Shown here: positions 4,033-53,237 of the stretch, in pieces
Position numbering within the stretch: the first letter of the stretch is position 1
How the letters are laid out: each line of letters starts with the position of its first letter
NCBI GenBank assembly: GCA_964537905.1
Contig: CAZICU010000002.1
Span: 1-63,694, forward strand
Source: an uncultured Gammaproteobacteria bacterium
Lineage (GTDB): Bacteria; Patescibacteriota; Microgenomatia; UBA12405
DNA length: 63,694 nucleotides
Direction: 5' to 3'
The notes under the pieces: generated by a model
Seen by the model: only the letters and a program-made list of their open reading frames with translations
Told to the model about the DNA's origin: nothing
Database searches by the model: none
Program-made: the position numbers and the translations under genes

Positions 4033-4683
4033 TTAAAAAACATATCTTTCTTTTTCTCGTCCAATAGCTGTTGCTTCACCATGTCCCGAAAAAACATCTG
4101 TTTCTTCAGGTAATTTCATTAATTTTCTTAAACTTTCAAAAATTTTTTTTGTTGATCCATATTTAAAATCAGTTCTGCCTCTCAAATCTTTAAACAATGT
4201 ATCTCCAGAAAATAACAACCCTCCTTTTTCAATGGATGGCAGAGTTGATTTATAGTAAAGACATACCGATCCTGGTGTATGCCCCGGAGTTTTTATGACT
4301 TCTAATTTACTTTCTCCCAAAATAATTTCTTTAATTTTATCCAAATCTTTATCAATTTTTATTAAATTTGGAATTTGCTTTTCTAATTTTAAAAAATGTT
4401 TTGCCGTCTCATCTTGTCTGTCCAATATAAATTTATCTTTTGAACTAACATAAATTGGCACTTTATACATCAATTTTAAATCCAAAGCCGCCAAGGAATG
4501 ATCAAAATGTCCATGAGTCATAATCACTCCTATTAATTTAATTTTCTTACTTTCAATTTCTTCTGAAATTGCTATTCCATCATCAGCCGGATCAATTACC
4601 AATCCTTCTTTTGTCTTTTCATCCCAAACAATATAACAATTTGTCTCTAGTTGGCCTAAAACCAGTACTTCAAATTTAATCAT
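4033..4683 (-). CDS. MBL-fold metallo-hydrolase (glyoxalase II-like)
   Basis: Carries the THGHFDH metal-binding signature and a downstream GHTPGS motif. The 216-aa size is typical of the family. Confidence 0.85.
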   Translation of the reverse strand: MIKFEVLVLGQLETNCYIVWDEKTKEGLVIDPADDGIAISEEIESKKIKLIGVIMTHGHFDHSLAALDLKLMYKVPIYVSSKDKFILDRQDETAKHFLKLEKQIPNLIKIDKDLDKIKEIILGESKLEVIKTPGHTPGSVCLYYKSTLPSIEKGGLLFSGDTLFKDLRGRTDFKYGSTKKIFESLRKLMKLPEETDVFSGHGEATAIGREKERYVF

Positions 4684-7312: not shown

Positions 7313-8386
7313 ATGGATTTAAATCAACTCAAAACTTTTTTAGATTCTCAAAATCTTCCGCCGTTTCGTTTCCGCCAAATTGTTAAGAATTATTTTTCTG
7401 GTCGTTACTCTAATTTTGATCAGATGACTGATTTGTCCAAGGATTTACGTGCCAAACTTTCCCAAAAATTTTTTCTCTTGTCTGTTTCCGAAACAAAAAC
7501 TATCGGTGATAATTCAGTTCAAAAAACTCTCCTAAAATTATCTGATGGTCAATCAATTGAAACTGTTCTTATGGATTATGAAGATTGGATCACTGCTTGT
7601 GTCTCTTCCCAAGTTGGTTGTGCTCTTAATTGTCAATTTTGTGCCACTGGCAAAATGGGTTTCCAACGCAATTTAACTACTGACGAAATTATTGACCAGA
7701 TTTTATTTTGGAAAAATCATTTAAATTATAAAAATAATTCTCCCCGTCCTGTTAAGGGAGATGGAGGGTGTAGTTCCTCCCCTTGTCAAAGGGGAATGAG
7801 GGGATTTTTGGGAGGGTTTAGAGTCGTTTTCATGGGTATGGGTGAACCATTTTTAAATTGGGATAACTTGCTGGCCGCTCTTGAAATTATTAATTCACCT
7901 AGTGGTCTTAATATTGGTGCTCGCAAAATTAGTATTTCTACTGCTGGCATTGCTGATAAAATTATTGAATTTACTAATTTAGACACTCAAATTAATCTCG
8001 CTGTTTCTCTTCATTCTGCCAATCAAAAATATCGTGAGTCAATTATGCCTATTGCTCGGCAATATAATCTCGACGAACTCAAAAAATCTTGTTTGTATTA
8101 TGTCAATCACACCAACCGTCAATTATTTTTTGAATATGCTTTAACTAACCAAAATACTTCTCCAACGGACGCCAAATTATTAGCTGATTTTCTTCATTCT
8201 CATCGTTTATTTTTTCTTAATCTTATTCCTCTCAATCCGGTTGATGACGGTCTTATTCCCGCTACCAAAGATCAACAAAAACTTTTTATGAATTATCTCA
8301 ATCAATACAGAGTTGAATATTCTCTCCGAAAATCTTTTGGTCAATCTTATTCCGCTGCCTGTGGCCAACTCGTTACTAACAAATAA
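7313..8386 (+). CDS. rlmN: 23S rRNA/tRNA (adenine-C2)-methyltransferase RlmN (radical SAM)
   Basis: Carries the CALNCQFCATG radical-SAM cluster, the MGMGEPF motif and a C-terminal SAACGQL. An in-frame repeat-derived insertion lies at residues ~143-169. Confidence 0.9.
   Translation: MDLNQLKTFLDSQNLPPFRFRQIVKNYFSGRYSNFDQMTDLSKDLRAKLSQKFFLLSVSETKTIGDNSVQKTLLKLSDGQSIETVLMDYEDWITACVSSQVGCALNCQFCATGKMGFQRNLTTDEIIDQILFWKNHLNYKNNSPRPVKGDGGCSSSPCQRGMRGFLGGFRVVFMGMGEPFLNWDNLLAALEIINSPSGLNIGARKISISTAGIADKIIEFTNLDTQINLAVSLHSANQKYRESIMPIARQYNLDELKKSCLYYVNHTNRQLFFEYALTNQNTSPTDAKLLADFLHSHRLFFLNLIPLNPVDDGLIPATKDQQKLFMNYLNQYRVEYSLRKSFGQSYSAACGQLVTNK
7739..7820 (+). repeat. Two tandem G/C-rich hairpin repeat modules inserted in frame in rlmN
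   Basis: The first module is tctccccgtcctgttaagggagatggagggtg (CTCCC/GGGAG hairpin). The second is cctccccttgtcaaaggggaatgaggggatttttgggagggttt (CCCCTTGTCAAAGGGG hairpin). The same motifs occur at 17776, 20604 and 28100. Confidence 0.7.
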
Positions 8387-17775: not shown

Positions 17776-17814
17776 CCCCCTCCTTGTCAAGGGAGGGGTC
17801 AGGGGTGGGTTTTT
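17776..17814 (-). repeat. G/C-rich hairpin repeat immediately upstream of the tRNA-binding protein gene
   Basis: The plus strand reads ccccctccttgtcaagggaggggtcaggggtgggttttt. On the gene strand this reads ..CCCCTCCCTTGACAAGGAGGGGG-ATG. It is the same family as 28100, 20604 and 7775. Confidence 0.7.
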
Positions 17815-20590: not shown

Positions 20591-20603
20591 AAAAAAAGAA
20601 TTT

Positions 20604-20633
20604 CCCTCCCCTTGGAGGGGTTAGGGGAGGGTT
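20604..20633 (+). repeat. G/C-rich hairpin repeat
   Basis: The sequence is ccctccccttggaggggttaggggagggt. It shares the CCCCT..AGGGG hairpin and the T(C/T)AGGGG(T/A)GGGT tail with 17776. Confidence 0.65.
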
Positions 20634-20642
20634 TATCTTAAC

Positions 20643-24089: not shown

Positions 24090-24149
24090 AATAATCTCAT
24101 ATAAAGGATAAAATTGTCATCTTGCGGAGTTATTTATTTTAGTGCAAAT

Positions 24150-24215
24150 AAAATTATATCAAAAAAGAAAATGTAATTATATCTATTTATTTTTGTATTC
24201 TTATAAGACTATATT
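24150..24215 (+). repeat. 66-bp exact direct repeat, copy 1 (5' flank of HNH-motif gene 1)
   Basis: The sequence aaaattatatcaaaaaagaaaatgtaattatatctatttatttttgtattcttataagactatatt is identical to 24896-24961. Confidence 0.9.
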
Positions 24216-24229
24216 AAATTAATTAATAT

Positions 24230-24709
24230 ATGTCAAAAGAAAGACAATCTCAATCAAAAGCAGGATATCACTCAAATAAAATGAGATTGTACGAAATATA
24301 CAACATAGAATATACAGATCGTAACTTTGATTGCCATCATATAGTTACTAAAAAAGACAAAAGAACCCATGTTGTTCCTTCTTATTTTAATCTTAATGAG
24401 ATTTCTAATTTACATCCTATAGATAAAAGATTACATAAATTAGTTACAAAAATCATCGAGGCATTAGATAATGGACAGGAAATAGATGTTCATGCAGAAA
24501 TTGAAAAAAAGATGAAATTAATTTCTGAAAAATCAGAAATTATCTCGAGAAAAACAGTTGAAGTTAATAATTCTGTTTATGATCATTCAAAAGAATTAAA
24601 CAATCAAGAAAAAATTGAATATATACGGTCATGTTTAGACGAAGAAAATTTAGACGAAAAGGCGTTAGCTTATTACTGTTCTGCTAGGCTCGATCTTGTC
24701 ACTAATTGA
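24230..24709 (+). CDS. Small HNH-motif protein, paralog 1
   Basis: The pattern DCHHIV..x..N(L)..P..x..H(KL) is consistent with an HNH/His-Me finger. It aligns with the ORF at 24971 along the N-terminal ~90 aa. Confidence 0.5.
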   Translation: MSKERQSQSKAGYHSNKMRLYEIYNIEYTDRNFDCHHIVTKKDKRTHVVPSYFNLNEISNLHPIDKRLHKLVTKIIEALDNGQEIDVHAEIEKKMKLISEKSEIISRKTVEVNNSVYDHSKELNNQEKIEYIRSCLDEENLDEKALAYYCSARLDLVTN

Positions 24710-24803
24710 TAAAATCAATTATTTTTTTTCTAAACTGTCATTATTACTCATGAATTAGTCAAAATCAGAAAATTAACCACCAAGATAGGGATTATTTAAT
24801 ATT

Positions 24804-24878
24804 TGGTGACCCTACGGAGAATCGAACTCCGATTACCAGGATGAGAACCTGACGTCCTAACCGTTAGACGATAGGGCC
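24804..24878 (-). tRNA. tRNA-Glu (anticodon CUC)
   Basis: The reverse complement reads GGCCCTA TC GTCT AACGGTTA GGAC G TCAGG TTCTCAT CCTGG TAAT CGGAG TTCGATT CTCCG TAGGGTC A CCA. It folds as a full cloverleaf. Confidence 0.9.
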
Positions 24879-24895
24879 TATTTATTGGAACAAAC

Positions 24896-24961
24896 AAAAT
24901 TATATCAAAAAAGAAAATGTAATTATATCTATTTATTTTTGTATTCTTATAAGACTATATT
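24896..24961 (+). repeat. 66-bp exact direct repeat, copy 2 (5' flank of HNH-motif gene 2, adjacent to tRNA-Glu)
   Basis: Identical to 24150-24215. On the minus strand it contains an extended -10 (TGATATAAT, 24899-24907) pointing at tRNA-Glu. Confidence 0.9.
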
Positions 24962-24970
24962 GAATAATAT

Positions 24971-25474
24971 ATGTCAAAAGAAAAACAACCTCAATTTAAA
25001 AAAAACAAATATTATAGTAATAGATTAAGAGCATTCAAAGCATATGGGATAAAAATTAATGATCCCGAATATAATTGTCACCATATAGTACAAAAAACTG
25101 ATTTAGAACAAGGATTAGTTCCGCATTATTTTGATATTGATGGTTTACCTAATTTATTTCCTATAAGGATAGATCAGCATGAACTACTTAACAAAATTAT
25201 TTATGCAGTAGATAATGATCAGGATATTAGTTGTTACTTAGATGAATGGAAAAAATTAGAAACAGATTCAAAAAAACCAAAAGTTGTTTCTAAAAAAACA
25301 ATTAATCATAAAACTATTATTCCAATACCACCAACCATTGATTTAACAAAAAAAAGTAAAAAAAAGCCAGAAAAACATCGTCAATCAATATTAGAAAAAT
25401 TAATCGATAAAGAAGCAGATGAATATTTGTCTTATTATCAATCTTCACTTAGAACTAATCTTGCCGAAATATAG
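24971..25474 (+). CDS. Small HNH-motif protein, paralog 2
   Basis: Carries NCHHIV..N..P..H. It shares the MSKE(R/K)Q start, the VP.YF motif and the KII.A.DN.Q motif with the ORF at 24230. Confidence 0.5.
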   Translation: MSKEKQPQFKKNKYYSNRLRAFKAYGIKINDPEYNCHHIVQKTDLEQGLVPHYFDIDGLPNLFPIRIDQHELLNKIIYAVDNDQDISCYLDEWKKLETDSKKPKVVSKKTINHKTIIPIPPTIDLTKKSKKKPEKHRQSILEKLIDKEADEYLSYYQSSLRTNLAEI

Positions 25475-28099: not shown

Positions 28100-28133
28100 C
28101 TTCCCCTCTTGTCAAAGAGGGGATTGAGGGGAG
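28100..28133 (-). repeat. G/C-rich hairpin repeat between comM and yraN
   Basis: The plus strand reads cttcccctcttgtcaaagaggggattgaggggag. On the gene strand this is CCCCTCTTTGACAAGAGGGG, ending ~12 nt upstream of the yraN ATG. Confidence 0.7.
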
Positions 28134-28141
28134 ATTGTTAT

Positions 28142-31804: not shown

Positions 31805-31856
31805 CTTCTCCCTTTTTTAAGGGGAGATGTCGAAGCGAAGCAAGACAAAGAGGTTT
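31805..31856 (+). repeat. G/C-rich hairpin repeat between uvrB and uvrA
   Basis: The sequence is cttctcccttttttaaggggagatgtcgaagcgaagcaagacaaagaggttt. It ends 5 nt before the uvrA ATG. Confidence 0.7.
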
Positions 31857-50520: not shown

Positions 50521-52627
<2,107 letters not shown>

Positions 52628-52633
52628 TAATTC

Positions 52634-53083: not shown

Positions 53084-53237
53084 TACGTCATTGCAAACGA
53101 ATCCTTACGTCATTGCGATCCGCCAGCTGGCGGAGAAGCAATCTCATTAAAATTTATCCCTAACATTTCACTAATTCAATAAACATCGTCATTGCGAGGA
53201 ACAGTTACCATAGTGACGAAGCAATCTCATTGAGATT
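53084..53237 (+). repeat. Three copies of a CGTCATTGCGA...GAAGCAATCTCATT repeat
   Basis: A partial copy lies at 53084-53104. A full copy at 53106-53148 encloses the palindrome CCGCCAGCTGGCGG. A full copy at 53186-53237 encloses CGTCA..TGACG. Confidence 0.75.

Follow-up and report, generated by a model that had tools for sequence, protein, structure and literature searches.

An in-frame insert in rlmN

The stretch of DNA analysed here, 63,694 nt of contig CAZICU010000002.1 (assembly GCA_964537905.1; hereafter the window), carries on its plus strand, at 7313-8386, the essential gene rlmN for the 23S rRNA/tRNA A-C2 methyltransferase, an intact open reading frame (ORF) of 357 aa in which an 81-nt G/C-rich insert is the subject of this study. 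The encoded protein has the Pfam domains RlmN_N and Radical_SAM, matches RlmN and Cfr in the PDB, and retains both the CxxxCxxC cluster motif (C103, C107 and C110) and the catalytic cysteines C96 and C350, all of which are invariant columns in a 20-sequence alignment. Among the best 120 homologues, the closest are proteins whose source records name Candidatus Shapirobacteria, a member of the Microgenomates within the candidate phyla radiation (CPR). Downstream of W133 the protein reads KNHLNYKNN, then a 27-residue insert (SPRPVKGDGGCSSSPCQRGMRGFLGGF, residues S143-F169, nt 7739-7819, a multiple of three in length), and then RVVFMGMGEP. The insert has a G+C content of 53%, compared with 33% for the remaining rlmN sequence and 31% for the window.

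A sequence-only reading of the same DNA had proposed an in-frame insertion of about 27 residues, far richer in G/C than the rest of the gene. Both statements hold; the sequence and translation are exact, and the insert is missing from all 18 aligned orthologues of 329-334 aa, which have W-NQKIYPQFVG-R at this site. Most of the family is of that size, as 118 of the 120 best homologues fall within the same length range, the exceptions being one 290-aa fragment and the 344-aa protein P0001. The loop had been described as variable; since the 18 empty-site orthologues share one length there, it is fixed in length. P0001 represents a second filled allele with one module only (peptide SPRPVKGGVRGGF, encoded by tctCCCCGCCCtgtcaaGGGAGGGGttaGGGGAGGGttt), and at least 13 contigs in JGI, ENA and Logan data, activated sludge among them, carry this single-module allele. 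The exact 357-aa double-module protein was found on four contigs assembled from four different SRA runs. The rlmN insert is real, derived and in frame, and its 81 nt are made up of two adjacent copies, one decayed and one intact, of a short dispersed DNA repeat. Judging from the retained residues, the window RlmN is presumably functional with a Gly/Pro/Arg-rich surface loop.

The site is in a connector that joins the first helix following the Fe-S cluster motif to the strand carrying MGMGEP. Alignments to RlmN and Cfr in the PDB break off at residues 131/133 and restart at 170/171, and the solved proteins span this gap with 9-14 residues. An AlphaFold2 model built on the 20-sequence alignment places a helix at 123-141, coil at 142-169 and a strand at 170-173; the model is poor, with a predicted local distance difference test (pLDDT) score of 56, and surface exposure of the insert is judged from topology. 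In radical-SAM barrels, connectors running from a helix to a strand are on the face away from the cluster and the S-adenosylmethionine (SAM) site, which would explain why an insert is tolerated here.

Two modules and a replaced flank

The sequence just upstream of the insert is changed as well. An A/T-rich flank of nine codons, KNHLNYKNN (7712-7738, plus strand), stands in place of the ancestral NQKIYPQFVG. Nothing else in the window or in any of the loci has this sequence, which is common only to the single-module allele. Two sources for it were considered and rejected: descent from the ancestral stretch through indels or a frameshift gave an alignment score no better than that of shuffles, and its uniqueness is inconsistent with a piece of a longer repeat.

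Module 1 (7739-7775, plus strand) is a decayed triplex motif encoding SPRPVKGDGGCS, with arms CTCCCC (7740-7745), AGGGAG (7755-7760) and GAGGGT (7764-7769), which we designate Y, R and H for the pyrimidine arm, the purine arm and the third, mirror arm, respectively. Its intact form is found in the sister allele, tctCCCCGCCCtgtcaaGGGAGGGGttaGGGGAGGGttt, and its peptide has drifted from GGVRGGF to GDGGCSS. Module 2 (7776-7805, plus strand) is intact, with Y arm CTCCCCTT (7777-7784), loop gtca, R arm AAGGGGAA (7789-7796) and H arm GAGGGGAT (7798-7805), and it is translated in another frame than module 1 (…SPCQRGMRG…). A trailing segment, TTTT-GGGAGGG-TTT (7806-7819, plus strand), lies 3' of module 2. 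The final 10 nt of this segment (GGGAGGGTTT) equal the 3' end of the H arm in the single-module allele, which places module 2 inside the older module or immediately next to it.

The sequence-only reading saw two tandem modules. Two adjacent modules are indeed present, but the first is decayed and the two are in different frames relative to the element. Moreover, their loops, TGTTAA in module 1 and TGTCAA in module 2, start 34 nt apart and the modules belong to different subtypes, which makes a simple in-frame tandem duplication unlikely. Alignments are compatible with several breakpoints. A metagenome-wide search with the flank plus the Y arm found no intermediate alleles, returning two more contigs that both carry the single-module allele.

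A three-arm architecture with a mirror arm

The repeat unit consists of a 5' pyrimidine arm (approximately CCCCTCCTT), a complementary purine arm AAGGAGGGG, and a 3' arm GGGGTGGTT that mirrors the purine arm, with G opposite G and either A or T opposite A. This arrangement corresponds to the class II purine motif of Holder et al. 2015 (PMC4666352), in which pyrimidine, purine and reverse-Hoogsteen arms form triplets of the types G·G:C and A·A:T or T·A:T, and which the ITxF database uses as a structural class (PMC4666352). A scanner written to the rules of PMC4666352 (Y arm, R arm, mirror H arm) found the Y-R-H block order at 7740, 7777, 17777, 20603 and 28101. Watson-Crick complementarity between Y and R, with at most one mismatched triplet and a stem of at least 7 nt, was likewise found, module 1 (7740) passing with 6-nt arms only; stems of 6-15 nt with loops of 1-6 nt occur at 7777, 17777, 20603 and 28101 (loops of 4 and 1-3 nt), and not at 7740. 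By these sequence rules, the repeat is a member of the class II purine-motif family of potential intrastrand triplexes. Where the sequence-only reading had a palindromic element, we find a three-arm motif of the BoxC/PIT/TM class with a mirror arm rather than a simple palindrome. The conserved TCAA and the trailing TTT would be T·A:T triplets, that is, an A:T extension of the potential triplex (…CCTT / AAGG… / …GGTT).

The family was surveyed in loci retrieved from one genome per GTDB species with the single exact pattern TCAAGGGAGGG-N2-5-GGGDGGGTTT, and 227 Y-R-H motifs were counted in 926 kb of related and retrieved loci among the matches listed. As a guard against circularity, we collected 185 pyrimidine/purine hairpins from the CPR loci listed, none of which is matched by the retrieval pattern. 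The mirror rule holds at seven or more of eight positions in the 3' tails of 39 of these unselected hairpins, the upstream control giving one; by our tally of the hairpins listed, 21 fit a mirror repeat only and none a direct repeat only. Arm sequences vary widely among copies, yet they change jointly in all three arms, as in TTCTCCCC/GGGGAGAA/AAGAGGGG, CCCCGTCT/AGAAGGGG/GGGGAAGA and CCCTTGCC/GGAAAGGG/GGGTTAGG. Because a mirror repeat is not producible by duplication or template switching, this covariation argues for selection on a folded three-strand structure.

Hairpins are predicted for the copies by ViennaRNA, which models hairpins only; their DNA z-scores are weak (-0.5 to -3.3) because shuffled sequences with C-runs and G-runs fold too. 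A G-quadruplex was rejected as the family-defining feature, as not every copy has four G-tracts; with tracts of at least three G and loops of at most 7 nt, four are present at 17777, in the rlmN copy of locus L001 and in module 2 with its tail, and only two at 28101. A promoter, with the loop read as TTGACA on the other strand, was rejected because the loops vary and no -10 element stands at the right distance. At Rfam gathering thresholds, the whole window gave two tRNAs only and no known RNA family at the repeat.

Other copies in the window

Three further copies, all on the plus strand, sit between complete, distinct genes. The motif at 17777-17810, CCCCTCCTT-gtca-AGGGAGGGG-tca-GGGGTGGGT in our Y-R-H scan, adjoins the start of a minus-strand tRNA_bind gene and is kept at the same site in locus L001 and missing in locus L011. 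The motif at 20603-20634, TCCCTCC-cctt-GGAGGGG-tta-GGGGAGG(GTTT), lies between two convergent genes, and that at 28101-28135, TTCCCCTCTT-gtca-AAGAGGGGAT-t-GAGGGGAGAT, also found in our scan and with co-varying arms, occupies a 49-nt spacer between a comM-like and a yraN-like gene. The earlier placement of the module 2 motif in intergenic sequence at 17776, 20604 and 28100 is therefore borne out. In addition, a decayed copy, CCCTCCtttttcaatGGATGGcagagttgattt (4219-4251, plus strand), lies antisense inside a gene of the metallo-beta-lactamase (MBL) fold (4033-4683, minus strand), where it encodes STLPSIEKGG; at that position L001 has the motif intact and L011 has a copy of another subtype.

All window copies are on the plus strand, whose GC skew is negative throughout, at a density of about one copy per 13 kb. 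Their number exceeds expectation: the 16-mer CCCCTTGTCAAAGGGG occurs three times in the window with up to three mismatches, against 0.36 expected, and the three-arm motif with at least seven triplets and at most one mismatch occurs four times, against 0.05 expected, a count that none of 100 Markov shuffles reached. The window scan as a whole matched 7740, 7777, 17777, 20603 and 28101 together with two weak 6-nt motifs, the match at 7740 needing 6-nt arms.

The copies at 17777-17810 and 28101-28135 both adjoin minus-strand gene starts, of the tRNA_bind gene and of the UPF0102/yraN-like gene, the latter 8 nt away. At these two copies, the pyrimidine arm has the complement AAGGAGGGGG or AGAGGGGAAG, which may act as a Shine-Dalgarno sequence.

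Distribution across genomes and genes

The retrieval pattern matched at least 119 loci, from 53 assemblies among the matches listed. Most of these belong to Shapirobacteria and other Patescibacteria, and further ones to Gastranaerophilales (Melainabacteria), Sphingomonadales, Bacteroidota and some high-G+C metagenome-assembled genomes (MAGs). None of 2.9 million viral contigs contained a match to the motif pattern. We found no relative in which unrelated DNA encodes the rlmN insert peptide, and the motif does recur away from rlmN; either contrary finding had been named beforehand as evidence against an inserted repeat.

Many copies lie within genes. Among the matches listed, 56 of the 227 motifs are inside long ORFs, and for the CPR loci the figures are 23 of 60 pattern-retrieved copies and 9 of 36 bystander copies. 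As random intervals score 0.58 by the same criterion, genes are still under-hit about twofold. About a quarter to a third of the copies in Shapirobacteria-type genomes are inside housekeeping genes, in frame. Host ORFs confirmed by Pfam include MiaA, RadA, a MiaB-like radical-SAM enzyme, DnaX, LigA (with two copies), TsaD, a GT1 glycosyltransferase, the CCA-adding enzyme and Wzy_C. TsaD has two such sites, and for each of them there are orthologues with and without the motif; of two sites in MiaA, one carries the motif in every one of the four species and the other in just one or two. The comparison with Rickettsia palindromic elements (RPE) that the sequence-only reading had drawn is apt in this respect, the same repeat being in frame in many housekeeping genes of related genomes.

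The motif keeps its identity in genomes whose G+C content ranges from 28 to 69%. It occurs in either orientation with respect to genes and yields peptides from at least five of the six reading frames (PLLVKGGVRGGF, PSLSREGLGVG, PPCQ…, KPTPNPSLDKEG and NPPLTPPL…). Because these peptides are unrelated, the identity of the element resides at the DNA level and not at the peptide level.

Outside the CPR, the motif can be embedded in larger units. It is the core of a longer conserved unit, which can recur in tandem every 81 nt, in an Avigastranaerophilus (Melainabacteria) MAG (e.g., L098, 141-300), and it lies within a conserved unit of about 100 nt in Novosphingobium/Porphyrobacter (Sphingomonadales loci, e.g., L055 and L075). 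Some MAG records titled 'uncultured Gammaproteobacteria bacterium' hold Shapirobacteria-type genes at 30-44% G+C (e.g., L011, the same as L118, CAZLCB010000001.1, whose rlmN is of that type), and these NCBI titles are probably placeholders or errors.

Orientation relative to the replication strand

The copies are strongly polarized. In the CPR loci listed, the G-rich (Y-R-H) strand is on the strand of negative GC skew for 90 of 103 copies, and for 55 of 61 when one copy per locus is counted (p ~5e-11). GC skew was computed from flanks with the motifs masked and the motifs themselves are G-rich, so composition does not explain the bias. Intragenic copies show it in both directions of transcription (16 of 17 sense copies and 19 of 19 antisense copies), indicating that orientation follows the replication strand rather than transcription. 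As the leading strand usually has more G than C, location on the negative-skew strand makes the triplex-forming strand the lagging-strand sequence, which is the template of continuous synthesis, and only rarely the exposed lagging-strand template.

Copies in the minority orientation, in loci of mixed orientation, are mostly partners of close inverted pairs. Such pairs on opposite strands are seen at L016 (5104/5156), L028 (3338/3370), L073 (5501/5543) and L108 (4002/4038). Melainabacteria show a weak opposite trend, with a skew near zero. For E. coli K-12, leading and lagging strands were assigned with oriC placed at about 3.93 Mb and dif at about 1.59 Mb. By our own count over Table 1 of PMC4666352, 13 E. 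coli copies are leading and 10 lagging, which is no bias.

History of the filled patch

The insert and the gene around it appear to have different histories. Outside residues 132-169, the window RlmN is nearest to the empty-site proteins P0002 and P0003 (7.2% divergence in protein-backbone distances), whereas the filled allele P0001 ranks about 14th by backbone and is the nearest neighbour in none of 500 bootstraps. Nevertheless, both filled alleles have in common the unique flank and module 1. This discordance between the filled patch and the gene backbone points to recombination between lineages or to a long-lived polymorphism. Three-taxon site patterns, used as a test for recent transfer of the patch, show a weak local excess only, and the protein-backbone distances are the clearer evidence. 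Of the description 'mobile or recombinogenic' in the sequence-only reading, the recombinogenic part is supported by the discordance; active mobility is not demonstrated: there was no target-site duplication and there were no terminal inverted repeats, nor was an associated transposase seen, though no search was aimed at one.

A contig from the same study (L010, 249-2110) is 100% identical to the window until about 7660 and then continues with empty-site rlmN sequence. Downstream its gene order differs as well, rlmN and obg being separated by an additional gene of 291 aa. The contig either represents a recombinant strain or is chimeric. Local genomic instability has also been tied to TM_ECO sites in E. 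coli (PMC4666352).

Proposed mechanism and alternative explanations

We consider it probable that a triplex-class repeat, acting as DNA, entered rlmN, that the resulting allele patch was shuffled among lineages, and that retention of the repeat depends on a strand folded at the replication fork. According to this proposal, the element would act at the level of DNA rather than RNA or peptide. The first copy would have entered the connector in an ancestor or in a donor allele, and the filled patch would then have spread among related lineages through homologous recombination. In the window lineage, this first copy would have decayed, and a second copy of another subtype would have landed in or beside it. 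Propagation or retention would depend on a folded single-strand structure at the fork, so that copies with the triplex-forming strand as the exposed lagging-strand template would not be made, or would be purged. The observed orientation may thus reflect either the purging of copies that block lagging-strand synthesis or a strand-specific copying step. Since these genomes have almost no intergenic space, surviving copies would often be those in tolerant protein loops. PIT elements do stall polymerase in vitro (PMC4666352). That an intrastrand triplex really forms at the fork in these bacteria, with the propagation or survival of the element depending on it, is a bolder and more tentative proposal, which we regard as possible but somewhat doubtful.

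Several observations weigh against this account. In vivo dimethyl sulfate (DMS) footprinting in E. coli detected no stable triplex (PMC4666352). Comparisons of filled with empty sites at rlmN, in the MBL-fold gene and upstream of the tRNA_bind gene revealed no target-site duplication or clean empty site and no terminal inverted repeats; filled and empty sites differ by replaced flanks and not by a clean insertion. No linked transposase was seen at the compared sites, where no search aimed at transposases was made. Module 1 fits the motif weakly, with 6-nt arms and a 9-nt first loop, and the structural model is of the poor quality noted above. Finally, the survey covers pattern-retrieved loci rather than whole genomes, its ORF calls are mechanical, and replication strands were assigned from GC skew alone.

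The best-surviving alternative is that the repeat is a non-autonomous single-strand DNA transposon, of the REP/RAYT or IS200/IS605-like kind, pasted into the lagging-strand template by a trans-acting HUH (Y1) transposase. Such pasting would give strand polarity directly, and IS200/IS605 family elements show the same kind of replication-strand bias, which is known for single-strand transposition. The strong orientation bias, the hairpin core, the presence/absence polymorphism at orthologous sites and, among the matches listed, sequence subfamilies common to unrelated taxa are all in line with it. However, a transposase accounts for a hairpin and not for a co-varying mirror third arm, the ends of the aligned copies listed have no conserved cleavage tetranucleotide or GTAG/CGTC tag, and the 2.9 million viral contigs gave no matches. 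No transposase gene was seen either, though none was searched for, and for TM_ECO of E. coli no link to mobile elements was found (PMC4666352). We think this origin unlikely.

A second alternative takes the DNA repeat as raw material only and holds that the insert was retained for the Gly/Arg-rich (RGG-like) loop that it encodes (…VKGGVRGGF… or …QRGMRGFLGGF…), which would aid RNA binding. A basic, glycine-rich peptide in an RNA-binding enzyme, encoded by a frame that is open in two alleles across many samples, counts in its favour. Against it stand the unrelated peptides that the same DNA gives in other frames or on the other strand elsewhere (PSLSREGLGVG, KPTPNPSLDKEG), the drift already apparent in the module 1 peptide, and the fact that all other orthologues listed manage without the insert. 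Retention for the peptide is, in our judgement, improbable.

Two further possibilities are each highly improbable. A local origin in rlmN through replication slippage or tandem duplication, with the intergenic likeness reduced to G-rich hairpins resembling one another, would suit the adjacency of the modules, the slippage-prone G-runs and the ambiguous breakpoints. It fails to account for the orthologues, which have no G/C-rich seed at the site, for the differences in subtype and frame between modules 34 nt apart, or for the match of each module to subtypes found elsewhere, and duplication cannot yield the mirror repeat seen in the 21 mirror-only versus no direct-only hairpins. The other possibility is a signal, either a chromosome-polarity sequence of the KOPS or Chi type read by a translocase or an mRNA hairpin or G-quadruplex acting as a translation switch. 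The fit of GGGGAGGG to the E. coli KOPS consensus GGGNAGGG, the strong polarity, with a window density of one copy in about 13 kb, the four G-tracts in many copies, and the Shine-Dalgarno-like purine runs that two intergenic copies next to start codons give on the other strand have suggested such roles. KOPS and Chi, however, have the opposite orientation to a G-rich arm on the lagging-strand sequence, and a translocase signal requires neither a hairpin nor a mirror arm. As orientation is independent of transcription (17 sense and 19 antisense copies), an RNA would be G-rich half the time and C-rich the other half; copy 28101 has two G-tracts only, and Rfam holds no matching family.

An assembly or binning artefact or a decaying pseudogene is barely credible, for although the source genome is metagenome-derived and the related contig L010 is a mosaic that breaks about 55 nt upstream of the insert, four runs yielded the identical protein, at least 13 contigs carry the single-module allele, and the frame is open, with all catalytic residues kept and an insert length divisible by three.

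Relationship to known repeats

The closest counterpart of the window repeat is an E. coli family that was first named BoxC and later PIT elements or TM_ECO (PMC4666352, with Hoyne et al. 2000 as cited there). TM_ECO oligonucleotides form triplexes in vitro as judged by circular dichroism (CD) and nuclear magnetic resonance (NMR), with a Tm of 70-82 °C, and each of the 23 copies in E. coli K-12 lies between genes (PMC4666352). The two repeats have the same one-strand arm order (Y, R, mirror), G/C-rich arms of 7-10 nt, a short second loop that is often TTA, and a recurrent G in the pyrimidine arm opposite an A in the purine arm ('type A mm'). Both occur occasionally as inverted pairs, vary in copy number and occupancy among close relatives, and have no known mobilising enzyme. 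They differ in sequence, however. The TM_ECO consensus is CCCTCNCCC-N3-6-GGGNGAGGG-N3-GGGNGAGGG, whereas the CPR and window arms are, for example, CCCCTCC(TT)/(AA)GGAGGGG/GGGGTGG(TT), with one interruption instead of two and with A/T extensions. They also differ in location, since TM_ECO is intergenic and balanced between strands (13 versus 10), while a quarter to a third of the CPR copies are intragenic and about 90% have one replication-strand orientation. By its sequence features, the window/CPR repeat belongs to the same structural class as TM_ECO and to a different sequence family.

Other known elements resemble it in part. RPE, reportedly described by Ogata et al. in 2000, are simple palindromes of about 100-150 bp known only from Rickettsia. 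Like them, the CPR element is a repeat of small A/T-rich genomes that lies in frame in many unrelated, often essential genes and adds a peptide while leaving the gene intact; unlike them, it is 30-40 nt long, is built of three arms that include a mirror repeat and is present in several phyla, a distinction drawn from descriptions and not from an alignment. In fungal mitochondria there are related hairpin elements, and mitochondrial GC clusters are occasionally in frame in coding sequence, as in var1. We know of no replication-strand polarity for mitochondrial GC clusters. The likeness to the CPR motif lies in short G/C-rich structured elements spread through a compact A/T-rich genome; in contrast to it, GC clusters are organellar and have a hairpin rather than a triplex architecture. 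The mobile GC clusters of yeast mitochondrial DNA are the subject of PMC4478555.

The systems REP/BIME-RAYT and IS200/IS605 are similarly hairpin-based, 20-40 nt long and of high copy number. REPs lie outside genes and are marked by a GTAG or CGTC tag (PMC3733652). Unlike the CPR motif, REPs are without a third mirror arm; in the 122 aligned copies listed there is no consistent end tag, GTAG preceding module 2 only. The replaced flanks of the CPR filled and empty sites, with no target-site duplication, also set the motif apart from MITEs (miniature inverted-repeat transposable elements). Our literature search, which was incomplete in coverage, returned no paper describing triplex motifs within genes or a strand polarity of such motifs.

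Other repeats in the window

Three regions of the window hold other repeats. About 17 tandem heptamers (ACTTTCT / ACTTTAT / ACTTTTT) fill a spacer at 52509-52628 from a stop codon to the next ATG. A second G/C-rich family is present at 53085-53215 as three copies of CGTCATTGC(G/A)A, one of which encloses the palindrome TCCGCCAGCTGGCGGA followed by GAAGCAATCTC; fragments similar to this family lie at 1-30 and at about 31829-31845. The region 24145-25474 contains a tandem pair of small paralogues (24230-24709 and 24971-25474), both with a CHHIV (HNH-like) motif. Upstream of each is a copy of a duplicated region, made up of 75 nt with 97% identity followed by 45 nt with 84%, and a tRNA gene (24807-24878, minus strand) stands between the two paralogues.

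Significance

The triplex-class repeats bear on annotation. The inserts lower domain scores, so that the Radical_SAM match is 'faint' or 'weak' in the filled alleles, and recurrent Gly/Pro-rich insert peptides could mislead the annotation and alignment of CPR proteins. BoxC/PIT/TM repeats have been known since the 1990s; the CPR copies add mirror covariation, strand polarity and many dated insertions in the form of filled and empty orthologous sites, which make the mechanism testable. They also show a route to new protein loops in minimal genomes. If a triplex at the fork does underlie their persistence, the repeats would constitute comparative-genomic evidence for an in vivo role of triplexes that experiments in E. 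coli did not detect. They would then represent a gene-less, self-propagating class of elements defined by structure, one that, where genomes have hardly any spacer DNA, systematically writes loops into RlmN, TsaD, MiaA, LigA, RadA, DnaX and other essential proteins.

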